64,000 nt of DNA, from contig CAVXYC010000025.1 in assembly GCA_963765765.1 (NCBI GenBank), forward strand, positions 32,001 to 96,000. Direction: 5' to 3'. Each line of letters starts with the position of its first letter. The stretch's first letter is position 1. The stretch is from an uncultured Chloroflexia bacterium (GTDB lineage: Bacteria > Chloroflexota > UBA6077 > JACCZL01). Below are positions 1-10,168 of the stretch, one piece after another. Below the pieces are notes generated by a model. That model was not told the origin of the DNA and made no database searches. It saw only the letters and a list, made by a program, of their open reading frames with translations. Position numbers and translations under genes: made by a program.

Positions 1-96
1 CTCGAATCCAGTACCGACGCCACTGACTTGAACGGGGTTGTCGACGATATCAAACGGTTGCGGCTGGCGAATTGCTCGTGGCGGGAAGCTTGGCAC
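1..96 (-). CDS. 5' part of a Gmad2 immunoglobulin-like domain protein (runs off window edge)
   Basis: Hand translation from GTG at 96 behind GGAGG gives MPSFPPRAIRQPQPFDIVDNPVQVSGVGTGFE, resembling the Gmad2 N-terminal pattern (P..D.V..P..VSG....FE). Confidence 0.5.
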   Translation of the reverse strand, partial: MPSFPPRAIRQPQPFDIVDNPVQVSGVGTGFE

Positions 97-218
97 AATG
101 ACCTCCGGTGGACGCGCGATGCGCCTACATATGCAGTGGGATGTGCTGCGCTTCTTCCCGTGCATCGTACGCCAACACCCGGGCGTCGGAAATCGGCCAG
201 TTGGCTGATTCGCGAGAT

Positions 219-524
219 CTAATGAGATGCTTCGACCTGGAAGTCGCCCGCGTCGGGATGTGGTTCGCACATGGCGCCGTCGGGGATCCGCTTGGCGCGG
301 CAGTGGAGAATATCGCCGGGCGCCGCTGAGCCGAGAAGGTCGCGTCGCACGCTGAATCCCATCGTCTCGCCCACGTGGGAAGAGAGCAGATCGGCACGAC
401 CTTCCACCGGCGCAGCGGCGTCGATTCGCACGTTCAGGAGGTCATAGTCGCCCAGCGAGGAGTGAGGCGCGCGCGCCAGGATCTCTCCGTCAATCCGCGT
501 GAGATTCTCGATAACCTGAACCAT
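219..524 (-). CDS. Small hypothetical protein (beta-rich, possibly OB-fold-like), last gene of the ATP-grasp cluster
   Basis: 101-aa ORF starting 10 bp after the ATP-grasp stop; protein-like composition. Confidence 0.65.
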   Translation of the reverse strand: MVQVIENLTRIDGEILARAPHSSLGDYDLLNVRIDAAAPVEGRADLLSSHVGETMGFSVRRDLLGSAAPGDILHCRAKRIPDGAMCEPHPDAGDFQVEASH

Positions 525-534
525 CGTACTGCCT

Positions 535-1449
535 TCAGGGCTTCTGCGTGCCGCTCGCGAGGAGCGTGATCAACGCTCGACTGATCGGCAAGCCGGTCTC
601 CCTCTCAAAGTAAGTATAGGCAGGCATGGGATTGACTTCGAAGCACACCCACTGACCCGAAGGACTGCGACGCAGGTCTATCCCGCAGAACGGGAGTCGC
701 AGCCGTTGACTGAGCAGCAGGCAACGATCGGACACATCGAGAGTCAAGTCGATGGGCGATAGATCAGCCGCGTTACCGTGATAATGCGCGTATCGGTAAT
801 CAGTCGCTTCGCTGGTGATAGCGCAGGCAAACACCTGTTTACCGATAACATGAACGCGGACATCTTCGCCCGATACCATCTGCTGGAGCTGGACTGGTAG
901 ATCTCGCAGCCGATCCAGGCGGGCAGCCTGCAATTCATCGAGCTCCGTGACGATCGATCGAACTCCACTGATCGACTTGAAGATAACCCGCTCGTGATCA
1001 CGCCAGAACGCCCGAGCCTCTTCGGGGCTGCTGGTCACAAGTGTCTCGGGTACATCGAATCCCGCTGCACCAATGAGCTGCGCTTGATACGGCTTGGACC
1101 CGTTAGAGTCCATGTCTGACGGGCGGTTGACCACCAGAGTCGGCGCCAGCTCGAGCCATTCGAGAAACAGCTCATGAAAAGTCTCAGAACGCGCGCGAGC
1201 CAGCGTATTCGCGTGGCTCCGCGGGATATCAAGCGGCCGAGCGTAGATTCCGGAGATCGCGTCGAGCTCAACGCTACGACCATCTATCGTAAGCACGCCC
1301 GTTGCGCCATGGTCCGTGACGCTTACGAGCAGGTCCGCGCGGTCCAGTGCGCATTGATCCAGCCAGATCAGATCCTGCTCCAGTTCGCGAGCGGTTTCAA
1401 TGGCCTTTTGCAGGGGCGGATCGTCGCCGCGGCCGTAGAACAGAATCAA
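535..1449 (-). CDS. ATP-grasp ligase, RimK / MvdD (graspetide synthetase)-like
   Basis: Motifs VVNRP..SKPYQ, VPETLVT, IFKSISG, LQQMV..DVRVHV, DYRY, GIDL, FEVNP and TGLPISRAL. Start placed at TTG (LILFYG); the ORF is open upstream to 1641. Confidence 0.9.
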   Translation of the reverse strand: MILFYGRGDDPPLQKAIETARELEQDLIWLDQCALDRADLLVSVTDHGATGVLTIDGRSVELDAISGIYARPLDIPRSHANTLARARSETFHELFLEWLELAPTLVVNRPSDMDSNGSKPYQAQLIGAAGFDVPETLVTSSPEEARAFWRDHERVIFKSISGVRSIVTELDELQAARLDRLRDLPVQLQQMVSGEDVRVHVIGKQVFACAITSEATDYRYAHYHGNAADLSPIDLTLDVSDRCLLLSQRLRLPFCGIDLRRSPSGQWVCFEVNPMPAYTYFERETGLPISRALITLLASGTQKP

Positions 1450-1640
1450 GAGCCGGGCACCTCGGAGGGGTGCCAGCCAGGTGTATGTAGTGATCGCTTC
1501 AGCGCTTTTTGGGCGATAACGAGAAGCGAGCGTGGCGATGCGACGGGCGACATCAGAAGCTGCCCGGTAGCAGCGAGCGGTCGCGGGGCGCATGCCCGTC
1601 TGCAATCTCGGAAAAAGTGCTGAAGCGCCCACTACGAGCA

Positions 1641-2525
1641 TCAGGGCGTCCGCATCTGAGCCGTGCGTGGGGAGGATGGCAATGGAACAGGCGTCTCTTT
1701 AACTGGCACGTGGACGCCGATCCCATTCCAGCCAGCGAGCAAATTCACCACTGCATCCACTGCCCAACTCTCCAGAAGCGGCGGCATCGCATCCACTGCA
1801 CGCACAACGAGACCCGCACTGGATTCGATGAATCGGATTTCGAGCAGGCGGCAGTCCGCCAGACGCGCTAGCGCCAGGCACGGGCCTTCGTAGCGGCCGG
1901 TGAGCGGCCCAACGGCGTGATCACCCGCGATCAGCACACTGCCTGCGCTACGACAGGACTCGTCGACTTGAAGCGCCGCGGGCGCGGGGCCCCGTACGCC
2001 GCCCGGCCATTGAAAACCATCGATGCGCTCGCCGCGTTCTGGTAATGAAAGCATGCGACCGGCGGTTGCGCGTGCGTTATGCGCAACCGGTAAGCCGACG
2101 CTCGCTGCGAGAGATAACCAGCCGCGTTCAGTGAGTGGTCCACGACATTGGCCGCGAGGGCCCGAAGGATTCACTACGCGGGGGCCGAAGCTGAAGAGCC
2201 AGCTCGCTACCAGCGCCTGTAGCTCTGCCCCCGCGTAGTCGCGATCTTTGGCCGTGGCTCGATGGAACCGAGGCACCGGCAAGTACTGCAGTCGATTGAA
2301 GACGCAGCTCACATTTTCCGATGAGACGACGGTTCCGTTAGGCAGCTTGATGTGCGTGCTCGCCTGCCCCGCGGCAGTGACTCGATGGGACCACGCGGCT
2401 AGTCCCAACGATTCGGGTCTGGCGAGAATCACCGACTCGCGGCCACTGTGCTCAGCAAGCCGAGAGGCCACGGCGCTGGCCCCGGCGTCGTGTCCATGGG
2501 CCAGCACCAGAACGGGTCTCGTCAC
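1641..2525 (-). CDS. Degenerate ATP-grasp-like protein (pre-ATP-grasp region retained, catalytic motifs absent)
   Basis: GTG start overlaps the reconstructed protease TGA (GTGA). Contains VFNRL...DRDYAGAELQALVASWL...VVNP...AASVGLPV but no KxxQ or ExN motif. Confidence 0.68.
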   Translation of the reverse strand: MTRPVLVLAHGHDAGASAVASRLAEHSGRESVILARPESLGLAAWSHRVTAAGQASTHIKLPNGTVVSSENVSCVFNRLQYLPVPRFHRATAKDRDYAGAELQALVASWLFSFGPRVVNPSGPRGQCRGPLTERGWLSLAASVGLPVAHNARATAGRMLSLPERGERIDGFQWPGGVRGPAPAALQVDESCRSAGSVLIAGDHAVGPLTGRYEGPCLALARLADCRLLEIRFIESSAGLVVRAVDAMPPLLESWAVDAVVNLLAGWNGIGVHVPVKETPVPLPSSPRTAQMRTP

Positions 2526-4457
2526 GAGCTCGGCGGGGTATCGTACTGACGCTTCGCGTCGCGATCGCCGGTCGGCGATGCGTTCCTGGATCGATTGATC
2601 GCCTCCGTCATAGTCGGGACCACCGGCCAGGTCGGGACGAAGACTGCTATCGATAAACGGCACTCCTGGGGCTCCCAGCCCTAACGCCTCTTCGAGGACT
2701 CGCACGCGCTCCTCGAGCGTGGCAAGTGGATCGGCTCCGCTGCCGTAGCCTGGATCCTGAAATTCACCAGGTCCGGGTTGATCGCTGGACCAGAAGAATC
2801 GCGGCCACTCGCGCGAGTCCTTCCGATCCTTGCTTTCCTTCCAGGGCTCCTTGGAGTCCTTGATGTTGTCTTTCCGATCTTTGGAATCCTTCGTATCTTT
2901 TGTGGCTTCTTTGCGGCTGTCCTTTTGATCCTTGGAATCCTTGGAGTCTTTGCTAGCCTCCTTGCGGCTGTCCTTTTGATCCTTGAGATCCTTCGCTTCT
3001 TTGTTGGGCTCCTTGGTGGCGTCTTTCTGATCCTTGGTGTCTTTGGCCACGGCCTTAGTGGTCACATTGACAGTGGCGGTCATCGTGGCGCCCGACGCGG
3101 AGATGTCAGTGACAGACACATTCGTGACTGCGCCAGCGTAGGAATTGGAGCTCGGTGTAGACGCGCCGGTGAGCGCGGTGACATTAGCGCTTCCCGGGAA
3201 TGGATCGCCTGCGTCGCCGCGATTGCGATCCAGCTCCAGATCGCGCTTTCCATCTGCCTGGACGAGCCCCACCTGGTAATGGTTCTCGTCAGTGTTGCCG
3301 GGCTGGTTTTCATCGATGTGCCAGATCAGCAGGCCGGCGGCTGGAAGCTGGGCGTCGTAGCCGGTTTTCTGACGATTCTCCATGAGGAAATACTCAGAGC
3401 CCGACCCGCCGTTGGTCCACAGTCGGTGCACGGCGTGGCTGTTTTTGACATCCGGGATGCTGATGATCCCATTCGAGGTCACATTTGACACGGTGGCCCA
3501 ACCCTGGTTCACCTTGCACCAGGCTGAAGGGTGCGCAGGAACGTCACCACCGCCATTCCAGGAGCCGCCGCCCATGAGGCACCAGTTTCCGACACCCTCC
3601 GAGGTGTAGTCAGTGTCGTAGAGGTCGGGGAAGCCGAACAGCAGATGACCCAGCTCATGCGCGCAGACGCCGATGCGCGAGTCTTCCGGCACAGTGAGAT
3701 AGGCGAAGATCTTCGTGCCATCCGCGTTGAACGAGCTGGGAAGCGTCCATTTATGCGACCAGATGTCGCCGGAGTTGCCGGTCTGCTCGCCGCCGCTCCC
3801 AGAATGGATCACGATGAAGGCATCAACGTACCCGTTGCCGTCGTTGTCGTACGGACCGAAGTTCACATCGGGGTTGGCTGCCACCGCGGCATCCTTGGCC
3901 ATGATATTCGCGCGCGGCGCGCCCGTGGGCTTGCCGATGCCGAAGTTGTTGTTGGCGTACCAGGCCAGCGTTTGAGGCAGTCGATACGGTCCCTTGACCT
4001 CCCCAACAATGTCCACCAGACCGCCAGTGACCTCTGCGAAGTACTCTTTCACGCTCCCGTGCGGTAACACGCCGTTAGAGAAGAAGAGATCGTTGAAATG
4101 CGCCGCGGTCTCTGTCATCGGTTTGTCCGAGTACTCGGCCAGTACCACGATGACACGCACCGCGCCGCGGAGCGGCGCGCGATCTAGAGCGGCGCGTCTG
4201 ATGACATTCTGGCTGGTGCCCGCGGGATACTCGTCTGGCGGGATGATCACTCCGTCATTAAAGCCCGGCCAACGGGGCTGGCGAGCCAGACCAAACGCCT
4301 GAGCCGATGCCGAGCGCGATCGCGCCCGCTCGAGCTGCGTTTTCATCTGCTGCTTCAGCTCCGGACTCGGAGCGACAGCGCAGAAGTCCGACCAAACCGC
4401 GATGGCCGGTCGGCCAGCTGAGCAGTGTTCTTCCGATGGATGTGAATTGCTCGCCAC
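2522..4457 (-). CDS. M6 family (immune inhibitor A-like) zinc metalloprotease with C-terminal K(D/E)x repeat tail; 1-bp frameshift near 2572
   Basis: HELGHLLFGFPDLY zincin motif, YDNDGNGYVD Ca-loop, IWSH, LMGGGSW, HPSAWCK, YFLMENRQ. GGGGAG RBS before GTG at 4457. The shifted frame ends GDRDAKRQYDTPPSS-stop. Confidence 0.92.
2808..3045 (-). repeat. Coding low-complexity repeat: about 23 K(D/E)x triplets with a 17-aa higher-order unit
   Basis: KDTKDQKDATKEPNKEAKDLKDQKDSRKEASKDSKDSKDQKDSRKEATKDTKDSKDRKDNIKDSKEPWKESKDRKDS. Confidence 0.95.
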
Positions 4458-4598
4458 AGTGATCTCCCCCGATGTCTCTGGCACGCGTCTCTGCGGGTCT
4501 ATCTCTTTTGTGGTCCGGAAAGGTTCATCCCGTGCATGCTACGCTGATGTTATTGCTGTGAAATCAGCCATTTGGGGGAGAATCCGCGGTGAATCTGA

Positions 4599-8774: not shown

Positions 8775-9059
8775 TTACGCGGAGAGTGACTCGACGTCGT
8801 CGAGGAGAAAGATGTCGGGCAGCTCGCTCACTCCAGCCTCCTGCATCACCGCGCGGAGGTTCTCGGACAGAGCAAAGCGCTTGGCCAGAGCGAGGTCTTC
8901 CCATTCGAAGAGGGCGACGACCTCGTTGCAGTTCTCAGGGCTGCGAAACAGCCGCCCGCCTTTGGAGCCGCTGGCCTCTCGCGTGGCCGCGTGCTCGTCA
9001 AATAGCCGCTTCCAGCGCTCAAAATCCTTGATCCTGTGGCGGATCAGCAAATATGGCAT
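8775..9059 (-). CDS. Small dimeric alpha-beta barrel (ABM/cyclase-like) protein
   Basis: HRIKDFERWKRLFD...FRSPENCNEV...MQEAGV; AAGGAG RBS. Confidence 0.8.
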   Translation of the reverse strand: MPYLLIRHRIKDFERWKRLFDEHAATREASGSKGGRLFRSPENCNEVVALFEWEDLALAKRFALSENLRAVMQEAGVSELPDIFLLDDVESLSA

Positions 9060-9284
9060 TCCGGCGTCATCTCCTTCCGTTTGCCTTCTTCAAGCAGATT
9101 AGGGCTCAGGCAGCCATGACGACTTCCGAGGAACCACGTAACTTTGAGCAGCCGACATCACGAGCGTTTGGCGGACCAGCTGGCGGAAACCACGTAGTGC
9201 TTTATTTGTAGAAAGCGGTGAGGTACCTCGCCGCTTTTGCGAGCTCCGTGAGGCAGATTGGGAGCCACGTTCCGACCACCGGGA

Positions 9285-10168
9285 CCTTGGCACAACTGAA
9301 CCCGAACGCGGCCGGCATTGATGTGGGAGCGGCCAGCCACTGTGTGCGGTGCCGGCCGAGCGAGCCCCCGGAACCGGGAATTCGGCGCGTTCACCAGCGA
9401 TCTATATCGATTGGCCGAGTGGCTGCGGGCGTGCGGGATCGAGACGGTCGCCCTGGAATCGACCGGGGTGTACTGGATCCCCCTGTTCTAGGTGCTCGAG
9501 GCGCGCGGGTTCGAGGTCAAGCTGGTCGACACCCACCAGCTCAAGCGCGTCCCGGGGCGCAAGACCGACGTGCTGGACTCCAGTGGCTGCAGCAGTTGCA
9601 CAGCTTCGGGCTGCTGGCCGGCGCCTTTCGGCCCGACGATCAGATCTGTGTGCTGCGCAGCTACATGCGGCAGCGAGCGATGCTGGTGACGTACGCGAGT
9701 CAGCACGTCCAGCACCTGCAGAAGGGGCTGGTCAGATGAAGGCAGTTGGGCTGGTGCTGGAGGATATCACCGGGGCGACCGGCCTGCGCATCATCCGGGC
9801 AAAATCGCGTGAGTGGGGGCAAGGTGCTGCGGCATGGACAGTGCAAGCACTCGGCGGCCACCATTGCTCAGGCGTTGCAGGGGGACTGGCGCGAGGAGCA
9901 CCTGTTTGCGCTGGAGCAGGCGCTCGAATTGATCGAGGCCTATCAGTCCAAGATCGCTGCCTGCGATGCGTGGATTCAGGCCCACCTGCGGACGTTTGCC
10001 GATCGGAGTGAGGGCCAGCCGCCGCCGCAGGGGCCGCCACCGCGGGGCCGACCGCCACGACCTGAGCTTTGACGCGACCGCGGAGCTGCTTTCGACTGAC
10101 CGGCGTGGACCTGACCGCGATCACCGGATTCCAGGCGCATATCGTTCTGAAGGTGCTCAGCGAGACCC
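9285..10168 (+). mobile_element. IS110-family transposase pseudogene, 3'-truncated
   Basis: AAGIDVG, VALESTGVYWIP, GRKTDVLD and EEHLFALEQAL across several frames; in-frame TAG at 9489-9491; ends at GVDLTAI, before most of the C-terminal domain. Confidence 0.88.

Follow-up and report, generated by a model that had tools for sequence, protein, structure and literature searches.

A Conserved C-Terminal Tail on M6 Metalloproteases as a Candidate Recognition Element and Substrate of a Graspetide-Type ATP-Grasp Pair

Organization of the Locus

The DNA considered here is a stretch of 64,000 nt (hereafter the window) from contig CAVXYC010000025.1 of an uncultured Chloroflexia bacterium, on the minus strand of which the open reading frame (ORF) listing places four co-oriented coding units between positions 219 and 4484. 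These encode an M6 metalloprotease, a degenerate ATP-grasp protein (DEG), an intact ATP-grasp ligase (LIG), and a small protein (Table 1). The protease carries a long C-terminal tail in which a segment rich in Lys, Asp, and Glu (K/D/E) is followed by an amphipathic helix and by a short sequence of the form PFIxxxLRPDL, referred to here as the FI motif. In M6 loci from metagenomes the long tail and the two ATP-grasp genes were found strictly together, and the FI motif recurs beside relatives of the same ligases on proteins that are not M6 proteases. The tail is therefore discussed in this article, with moderate confidence, as the recognition element and substrate of the graspetide-type LIG working with DEG, built into a full-size enzyme.

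Table 1. Features of the cassette, with positions counted from the first letter of the window.
Feature	Position	Strand	Remarks
M6 (InhA-like) metalloprotease gene	2522..4457	-	Form found in relatives; assigned from TIGR03296, PF05547, and homologue lengths
Protease start, GTG	4457	-	Matches the start of P0001; upstream GTG at 4484 also open
HELGH zinc-binding motif, residues 276-280	3645..3659	-	Invariant columns in alignments of 10 and 40 homologues
K/D/E(S/T)-rich repeat segment, residues 476-559	2808..3059	-	Candidate Lys-Asp/Glu cross-link site
Amphipathic helix, residues 585-604, LEERVRVLEEALG type	2673..2732	-	Conserved in alignments A1, A3, and A5
FI motif PFIDSSLRPDL, residues 609-619	2628..2660	-	Proposed DEG/LIG recognition element (leader/follower-like)
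Site of the 1-nt insertion joining the protease ORF to DEG	2570..2573	-	From frame comparison and spanning contigs
Conserved end of the protease, read in the other frame (GDRDAKRQYDTPPSS and a stop)	2522..2569	-	Carries the KxxxD pair
Ancestral protease stop, TGA	2522-2524	-	Reached only with the extra base near 2572 removed
DEG, degenerate ligase paralogue	1641..2525	-	GTG start at 2525 overlaps the ancestral protease stop (GTGA)
LIG, graspetide-type ATP-grasp ligase, 304 aa from TTG 1449	535..1449	-	ORF open to ATG 1641
Small OB-fold protein, 101 aa	219..524	-	Predicted M6 partner; AlphaFold2 (AF2) model with pLDDT 94

An initial annotation, made from the letters of the window alone, had described four co-oriented genes. 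The minus-strand run holds, but protease and DEG do not appear as separate genes in the raw sequence, where an extra base fuses them. With translation table 11, the minus-strand ORFs are 1641-4484 (947 aa), 535-1641 (368 aa), and 219-524 (101 aa), and the 947-aa ORF comprises protease and DEG in one frame with no stop codon separating them. The fusion is attributed to a single inserted nucleotide, which arose in assembly or by a very recent mutation, because relatives keep the two proteins separate, the other reading frame supplies the conserved protease end, and contigs that span the site lack the base. In that other frame, positions 2569 to 2522 encode a protease ending and stop identical to those of P0001, a homologue of 91% identity, and in nine homologues of the tail region, of 38-91% identity, the protein measures 580-644 aa and closes with the conserved sequence ...GDRDAKxxFDxxP... 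The base at 2572 is missing from both of the read-sized contigs that span the site, which come from two studies and have depths of 3.3 and 2, each weak on its own. At the frameshift, the match of a tail profile to the genome of the window breaks into two parts that lie in different frames. As for the C-terminal part of the fused ORF, the best 150 of 1002 relatives are all standalone proteins (72-317 aa) whose best-matched stretches of the query start no earlier than position 42, with the tail helix and FI motif outside the matched stretch. Since the fusion is thus judged to be an artifact or a very recent change and the relatives of DEG stand alone, the four-gene arrangement is taken to be the ancestral state. 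The sequencing runs contain at most 0.32 of the sampled words, and no habitat or strain is inferred from them. In one related genome (G621; locus L112, 7244-8033, plus strand) the DEG gene is also spread over two frames, which may be a similar frameshift.

The Protease Tail

The tail had been described initially as a terminal extension made largely of Lys, Asp, Glu, Ser, and Thr. The composition is as stated, residues 476-559 being 57% K+D+E and 74% K+D+E+S+T against 13% and 28% in the protease body, but this stretch does not form the end of the protein: some 85 conserved residues lie beyond it, made up of a Gly-rich linker, the helix, the FI motif, and an end that carries the KxxxD pair. Within its 84 residues there are 23 K[DE] dipeptides, with Lys spaced at 3 or 4, and beneath it in the DNA lies a 51-nt tandem repeat of 3.2 copies.

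The repeat segment varies in type (KDx, KExF, EKxx) and in its number of K[DE] dipeptides (1 to 41), and in 40 distinct tails K+D+E make up 30-65% (median 43%) of the stretch that precedes the helix. Every one of the 40 distinct long tails has the pattern [FY]I-x(2-5)-x-RP-x-[LI], and five residues of the FI motif (F, I, R, P, and L) do not vary across 40 full-length M6 homologues. A Lys and an Asp four residues apart near the C-terminus are also invariant in the alignment of 40 M6 tails, with K-x3-D lying inside the last 16 residues in 39 of the 40. The very last residues vary (PPG, PS, PPV, and others), and no conserved acidic end is present. Tail-like helices occur in some tail-less M6 proteins too, and the helix is not specific to the ligases. 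A tail-profile scan of the genome of the window returned the M6 tail, split across its two frames, as the only FI module.

The ATP-Grasp Pair

The start of LIG is most likely TTG 1449, because the family consensus begins at exactly that point and the 120 homologues listed span 57-83% of the 368-aa ORF. Against PDB sequences, LIG scores 92.7 bits with PsnB, 48.1 with CdnC, 46.6 with PruB, and about 40 with MdnB/C, compared with 34.8 for RimK and 22.6 for glutathione synthetase. Among family models, the 368-aa ORF is matched best by those of graspetide maturases; the score against the RimK family model TIGR00768 (66.3 bits) falls below its cut-off of 143.4, and the generic Pfam RimK ATP-grasp domain is matched at 40.7 bits. 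Across 52 family members no change is seen at K158, R198, H200, D258, or N273, conservation of E271 reaches at least 90%, and all of these residues are present in the LIG of the window. D217-Y218-R219 is likewise invariant in the family, and a D-F/Y-R motif is termed critical for graspetide synthetase activity in the available text of Carter et al. (2026). Judged by these residues and scores, LIG is a ligase of the active type and of the graspetide-macrocyclase kind, nearer to PsnB than to RimK.

DEG is predicted with high confidence (AF2 predicted local distance difference test, pLDDT, of 92), and its top fold matches are PruB, CdnC, MdnB/C, and PsnB, with TM-scores of 0.58-0.67. It aligns to LIG over the full length (hhalign probability 96.8%) and keeps only 4 of the 39 residues that are invariant in LIG, the Lys, Arg/His, DYR, and D/E-x-N positions all having been lost. 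DEG is thus a predicted paralogue of LIG that has the same fold and is catalytically dead. Most of what the initial annotation had stated of the individual proteins is borne out by these analyses, including the degenerate ATP-grasp, the intact ATP-grasp at 535-1449 (or 535-1641), and the lack of a separate short precursor ORF in the window.

About 190 nt separate the DEG stop from the likely LIG start (1450-1641, minus strand), and this interval is open in the LIG frame, where it would add a 64-aa extension. At other loci the two genes lie end to end or overlap, unlike the arrangement in the window. The extension found no match among the 120 homologues listed and is not taken for a precursor.

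Co-occurrence of the Tail and the Ligase Pair

Metagenome contigs were scanned with the M6 alignment, which yielded 80 loci. Loci were evaluable if they had a near-complete M6 body with its stop codon and 1000 nt or more of sequence downstream, as was the case for 46 of the 80, the other 34 being too short. Tails of at least 129 aa were counted as long, and DEG and LIG were each scored as present at 100 bits or more. By these definitions, both DEG and LIG lie downstream in all 32 loci with long tails, whereas neither is present in any of the 14 loci with short tails.

On a tree of the M6 body (72 rows) the state of the tail changes at least 12 times, 8 of these changes being forced by well-supported branches. 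In phylogenetically independent contrasts on supported branches, tail and ligases agree in 5 of 5 (sign test p = 0.0625, the best value possible with five pairs), and 9 contrasts are available when all branches of the best tree are used. The sequences and their phylogeny thus indicate that the tail and the ATP-grasp pair are coupled.

Carriers Other Than M6 Proteases

The pair is rare in the phylum of the window, LIG being found in 2 of 60 relatives and, in another class, in 11 of 301 genomes, and DEG in 3 of 400 sampled genomes. Two of those 11 LIG matches lie on contigs too short to judge, and two others are distant (under 150 bits) and have no FI motif nearby. In the remaining non-M6 loci, a gene adjacent to DEG/LIG carries the FI motif in 10 of 10. 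The motif is C-terminal on a 1289-aa DUF6519 protein with no K/D/E repeats (G028), on a 425-aa protein of no Pfam family with KD/KE repeats and a helix (G118), and on a 757-aa protein with weak trypsin-like matches, KE repeats, and a helix (G621). It is N-terminal on standalone proteins of about 150 aa encoded after LIG, two of which continue with repeats and then the helix, in permuted order (G309 and G595), and one of which has no K/D/E repeats (G501). It is also N-terminal on two short, precursor-like ORFs with K/D-rich ends (G441 and G547), on a domain related to the G118 carrier, where the repeats are not in the carrier and a short KE-rich stretch lies in an upstream ORF (G596), and on a PqqD protein with no K/D/E repeats (G055). 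Because 3 of these 10 loci have the motif without repeats, the FI motif, rather than the K/D/E repeat, appears to be the feature that always tracks the ligases.

The likeness of these carriers to the M6 tail is detectable with a profile built from M6 tails only, for which, out of 2932 six-frame segments, six of the carrier ORFs ranked highest (E-values of 1e-10, 0.0036, 0.0036, 0.029, 0.31, and 0.56), with two more at 1.7 and 2.7. A database search with the tail profile returned 58 proteins at E ≤ 0.01, 45 of them with an M6 Pfam domain. Ten have no Pfam domain, and these include two M6 fragments, five proteins source-named 'immune inhibitor A', and a relative of the G118 carrier (P0335). The remaining three are P0304, for which alpha/beta-hydrolase Pfam families are on record, a DUF6519 protein, and an S8 subtilase (P0337) that has both KE repeats and the FI motif. 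P0336, source-named Chloroflexota, is identical to the ORF of G028, a genome of the same order as that of the window, so that by this route too the genome of the window is probably Chloroflexota. Since M6 proteins with the tail are source-named from Tahibacter, Rhodopila, Zoogloea, and Tetrasphaera, the cassette is considered to cross phyla.

Several of the carriers have features of their own. The G441 and G547 ORFs (L116, 9755-10114, and L117, 9887-10459, both minus strand) are about 75-90 aa long from the first Met, within open frames of 120 and 191 aa; both carry LFI..RPDL at the N-terminus, their K/D-rich ends are identical, and they lie beside a more distant LIG, accompanied at the G441 locus by a weak DEG-like ORF. 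From their sequences they look like classical leader-core peptides of the LIG/DEG family. The standalone proteins of about 150 aa (L096, 6889-7350, minus strand; L115, 8834-9331, plus strand; L113, about 2500-2935, plus strand) share the N-terminal FI motif, a conserved SEL(R/T)VRDL, and a C-terminal helix, and so present the tail module in permuted form. At L095 (4887-6161, minus strand) and L114 (about 8946-9674, plus strand) the carrier is a recurring domain of some 250 aa that matches no Pfam family; the motifs Y(M/I)DGL..Y and TDP are common to both by eye, and the FI motif is C-terminal in one and N-terminal in the other. The neighbors of the DUF6519 gene in G028 were considered as phage baseplate genes, an assignment left unsupported by the lack of Pfam matches.

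A scan of contigs from genomes with LIG alone gave one unrelated 24-residue match only. The plasmid collection held no match to DEG and only two distant matches to LIG (34-38% identity), and viral contigs held relatives at 22-27% identity only.

Proposed Mechanism and Alternatives

In the favored reading, the FI motif would be a leader-like element in follower position that docks the tail on a complex of DEG and LIG, where DEG would probably contribute binding but no catalysis. LIG would then use ATP to join Lys amines to Asp/Glu carboxyls, giving isopeptide (lactam) links that would fall within the K/D/E repeats, at the terminal KxxxD, or at both places. As to purpose, the protease might set a peptide free, it might be locked in a latent state, or covalent oligomers might form. 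We infer the binding, the chemistry, the residues linked, and the purpose from sequence comparison. The cross-linking proposed is chemically reasonable in view of existing precedents. A published abstract reports that a leader repositioned C-terminal to the core still guides a graspetide synthetase, with a two-fold loss in rate. In the available text of Li et al. (2026), tandem (KxxE)n lactams are described together with an ATP-grasp enzyme that is inactive alone (myxomiditide, MyxD2), and partner-dependent synthetases and a large repeat precursor are described in that of Carter et al. (2026) (rosaritide MirB/MirC). If the tail is cross-linked, folded enzymes would be added to small peptides as targets of graspetide chemistry, a C-terminal 'follower', so far shown by engineering only, would exist in nature, and a pseudo-enzyme partner would join the known organizations of these ligases.

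The initial annotation had proposed the tail as the ligase target and the K/D/E repeat as the feature by which to follow it among the neighbors of homologous ligases. The first proposal is strengthened by the counts of M6 loci, the contrasts, and the shared module on unrelated carriers; in the second, the FI motif takes the place of the repeat, which is missing in G028, G501, and G055.

A number of observations weigh against the tail as recognition element and substrate. Because tail, DEG, and LIG are contiguous, one deletion could remove all three, so that their joint loss is weaker evidence than the number of loci suggests, and some of the M6 loci are near-duplicates (68 of the 72 tree rows are distinct). 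At locus L013 the tail is 45 aa long and has neither repeats nor FI motif, yet the start of DEG follows; this locus stands outside the count, its contig ending 190 nt past the protease gene. LIG also falls outside the specific subfamilies of the named maturase models used (TIGR04187, TIGR04184, and TIGR04185), scoring below every curated cut-off, with 128.5 bits against 350 for TIGR04187, 73.6 against 475 for MvdD, and 68.6 against 425 for MvdC. Finally, the three motif carriers without K/D/E repeats leave the modified residues uncertain, and the carrier in G055 is of the PqqD type, a protein that is an accessory and not a substrate in other systems for peptides that are made on ribosomes and modified after translation (RiPPs), which fits a pure docking role for the FI motif. 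In the sequence of L013 itself (1760-2079, plus strand) the helix is retained and the terminal Lys is replaced; the locus may represent a cassette in decay.

A docking role of this kind forms the basis of the first alternative, in which the FI motif tethers accessory enzymes, such as the protease or PqqD-like proteins, to DEG and LIG, the K/D/E stretch is a flexible charged linker, and the true substrate is either encoded elsewhere or made by the protease from cellular proteins. The PqqD and repeat-less carriers favor it, as do the tail-like helices of tail-less M6 proteins, and substrates in trans are preferred in the available text of Makarova et al. (2022; PMC8939145). It is nevertheless thought unlikely, since the motif is also found on short or standalone precursor-like proteins that have no enzymatic domain (G441, G547, G309, G595, and G501), and since the invariant terminal K-x3-D and the K/D/E-rich composition present the donor and acceptor residues that such ligases use. 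In addition, no other candidate precursor ORF was seen within the window, and its genome holds a single FI module.

In a second alternative, the tail would be a structural or sorting extension, concerned with oligomerization or localization, and its association with the ATP-grasp genes an inherited linkage with no direct interaction. Contiguous genes can indeed be lost jointly, and L013 keeps a DEG start behind its shortened tail. This explanation is very unlikely, however, because the same motif stands by DEG/LIG on unrelated carriers and in permuted order, and because among the 46 evaluable loci the tail was never seen without the ligases nor the ligases without the tail. The last alternative, that LIG acts like RimK and adds glutamates or other amino acids to the C-terminus or side chains of the protease, draws on the Pfam RimK domain match and on homologues source-named 'RimK family alpha-L-glutamate ligase', and is highly improbable given the score below the TIGR00768 cut-off, the much closer match to PsnB than to RimK structures, the invariant D-Y-R of graspetide synthetases, and the variable, non-acidic tail ends.

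If the tail is indeed recognition element and substrate, a broader reading suggests itself, and is offered tentatively: the FI motif with its adjoining segment may be a portable 'graspetide tag', the ligase/pseudo-ligase pair reading the motif at either end of a carrier and stapling the K/D/E-rich segments next to it. That the carriers of such a tag are folded enzymes, mostly proteases of unrelated families, is a part of this reading that is put forward with the same reserve. Were it true, graspetide chemistry would be at work in nature on full-size proteins in cis, with a native follower at the C-terminus as its guide, and the stapled tail could be an inhibitor or latency lock for a protease lacking a signal peptide, or a device for covalent oligomerization.

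Relationship to Known Systems

The cassette had been put forward as a candidate new system, a status that cannot be kept in full. In the available text and Table S1 of Makarova et al. (2022; Biol Direct 17:7, PMC8939145), a 'branch 8' is described in which an ATP-grasp is associated with a truncated or inactive ATP-grasp and with peptidases of unrelated families. No precursor was found for this branch, and its peptidases were proposed to cut other cellular proteins. The taxa given include Streptomyces, Tetrasphaera, and 'bacterium JKG1', and many of the sequences carry a flag for similarity to the set of Iyer et al. (2009). By description, lengths, and taxa, the present cassette fits branch 8 and is not wholly new: an ATP-grasp of about 290-335 aa stands beside an inactive one (here DEG), the peptidases vary (here M6, with the tail module also on the S8 subtilase P0337 and on the protein of G621 with weak trypsin-like matches), and close homologues of LIG and of the M6 tail are source-named Streptomyces and Tetrasphaera. 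What differs is that the peptidases and other carriers described here have a tail and FI motif that are conserved and vary together with the ligase pair. The portions of the related ATP-grasp literature compared contain no mention of tails or of an FI motif, and literature searches turned up nothing relevant apart from Makarova et al. (2022); the study of Iyer et al. (2009) lies outside this comparison and may bear on priority. A tail that serves as substrate or recognition element would give a concrete answer for the ligases of branch 8, with an FI motif usable for genome mining, and the portable tag, if real, would supply the precursors missing from that branch.

Among classical graspetide systems (microviridin MdnA/B/C, plesiocin PsnA/PsnB, and chryseoviridin CdnC) are found the best solved relatives of LIG, namely PsnB, CdnC, PruB, MdnB, and MdnC, and DEG has the fold of their synthetases. 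The start of the FI motif, P-F-I-x-x-x-L, is reminiscent of the PFFARFL leader motif quoted in the available text of Makarova et al. (2022; PMC8939145). Unlike in those systems, where it is a short peptide, the proposed substrate forms the tail of a protease about 640 aa long, the K/D/E repeats are followed rather than preceded by the recognition motif, and one of the two ATP-grasp proteins is predicted to be dead; in place of a short precursor ORF beside LIG, the window has a leader-like FI motif and K/D/E-rich segments fused to a protease.

Partner dependence is a feature of rosaritide MirB/MirC and of MyxD2, where, in the texts available, the ligase needs a non-catalytic or second protein, as DEG is suggested to be for LIG. 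Those partners are a SurA-like protein or active ATP-grasp paralogues, whereas DEG is a degenerate ATP-grasp. Tandem repeats of Lys and acidic residues are cross-linked by ATP-grasp ligases in the (KxxE)n myxomiditides and in corallotide, which has five Lys-isopeptide repeats, according to the same partial sources; in the protease tail the repeats recur every 3-4 residues (KDx or KDxx) and extend much further, and their modification is a prediction. The system also recalls RimK and ribosomal protein S6, where a folded protein has its C-terminal tail modified by an ATP-grasp enzyme, but LIG is much nearer to the macrocyclases and the tail has no conserved acidic end.

The M6 Protease, the Small OB-Fold Protein, and Neighboring Genes

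The protease exceeds the curated cut-offs of both M6 family models (TIGR03296, 249.7 bits against 110.8; PF05547, 85.1 against 22) and has an intact HExxH zinc site, and its first 60 residues contain, by inspection only, no hydrophobic stretch of the kind found in signal peptides; membership, zinc site, and lack of an obvious signal peptide had all been correctly noted from the outset.

The small protein had been listed initially as part of the co-oriented run. Its homologues directly follow M6 genes in loci that have neither tail nor ligases, and for this reason it is assigned, from gene order, to the M6 protease clade as a conserved partner and not to the ligase system. It was also observed after M6 genes at L022, L038, L047, L060, and others, whether or not the tail and ligases are present. 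On the same grounds the small ORF was ruled out as a precursor. Its predicted fold is a barrel like that of the oligonucleotide/oligosaccharide-binding (OB) fold, with generic OB-fold matches only (Z 7-8), and no Pfam, NCBIfam, or PADLOC family was matched. An identity as an inhibitor like the tissue inhibitors of metalloproteinases (TIMPs) was rejected, TIMP-1 and NTR domains scoring Z 7.1-7.2, which is no better than many OB folds; a role as inhibitor or chaperone is only a guess. None of the four cassette proteins was matched by PADLOC.

The opposite-strand neighbors, which encode a DUF427 protein and a Kelch protein, appear unrelated to the cassette. The next gene downstream (window 1-270, minus strand) extends beyond the window (L007, 11599-12270) and encodes Gmad2 (Ig-like) and LysM domains; no tie between this gene and the cassette was seen in other loci. 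At the other end of the cassette, the protease N-terminus (window 4340-4400, minus strand; residues about 29-48) has an invariant Cys within a conserved C-x-V-A-P-x-P-x-L, the positions invariant in alignment A1 being C35, V37, A38, P39, P41, and L43, and a pro-segment resembling a cysteine switch is conceivable there.

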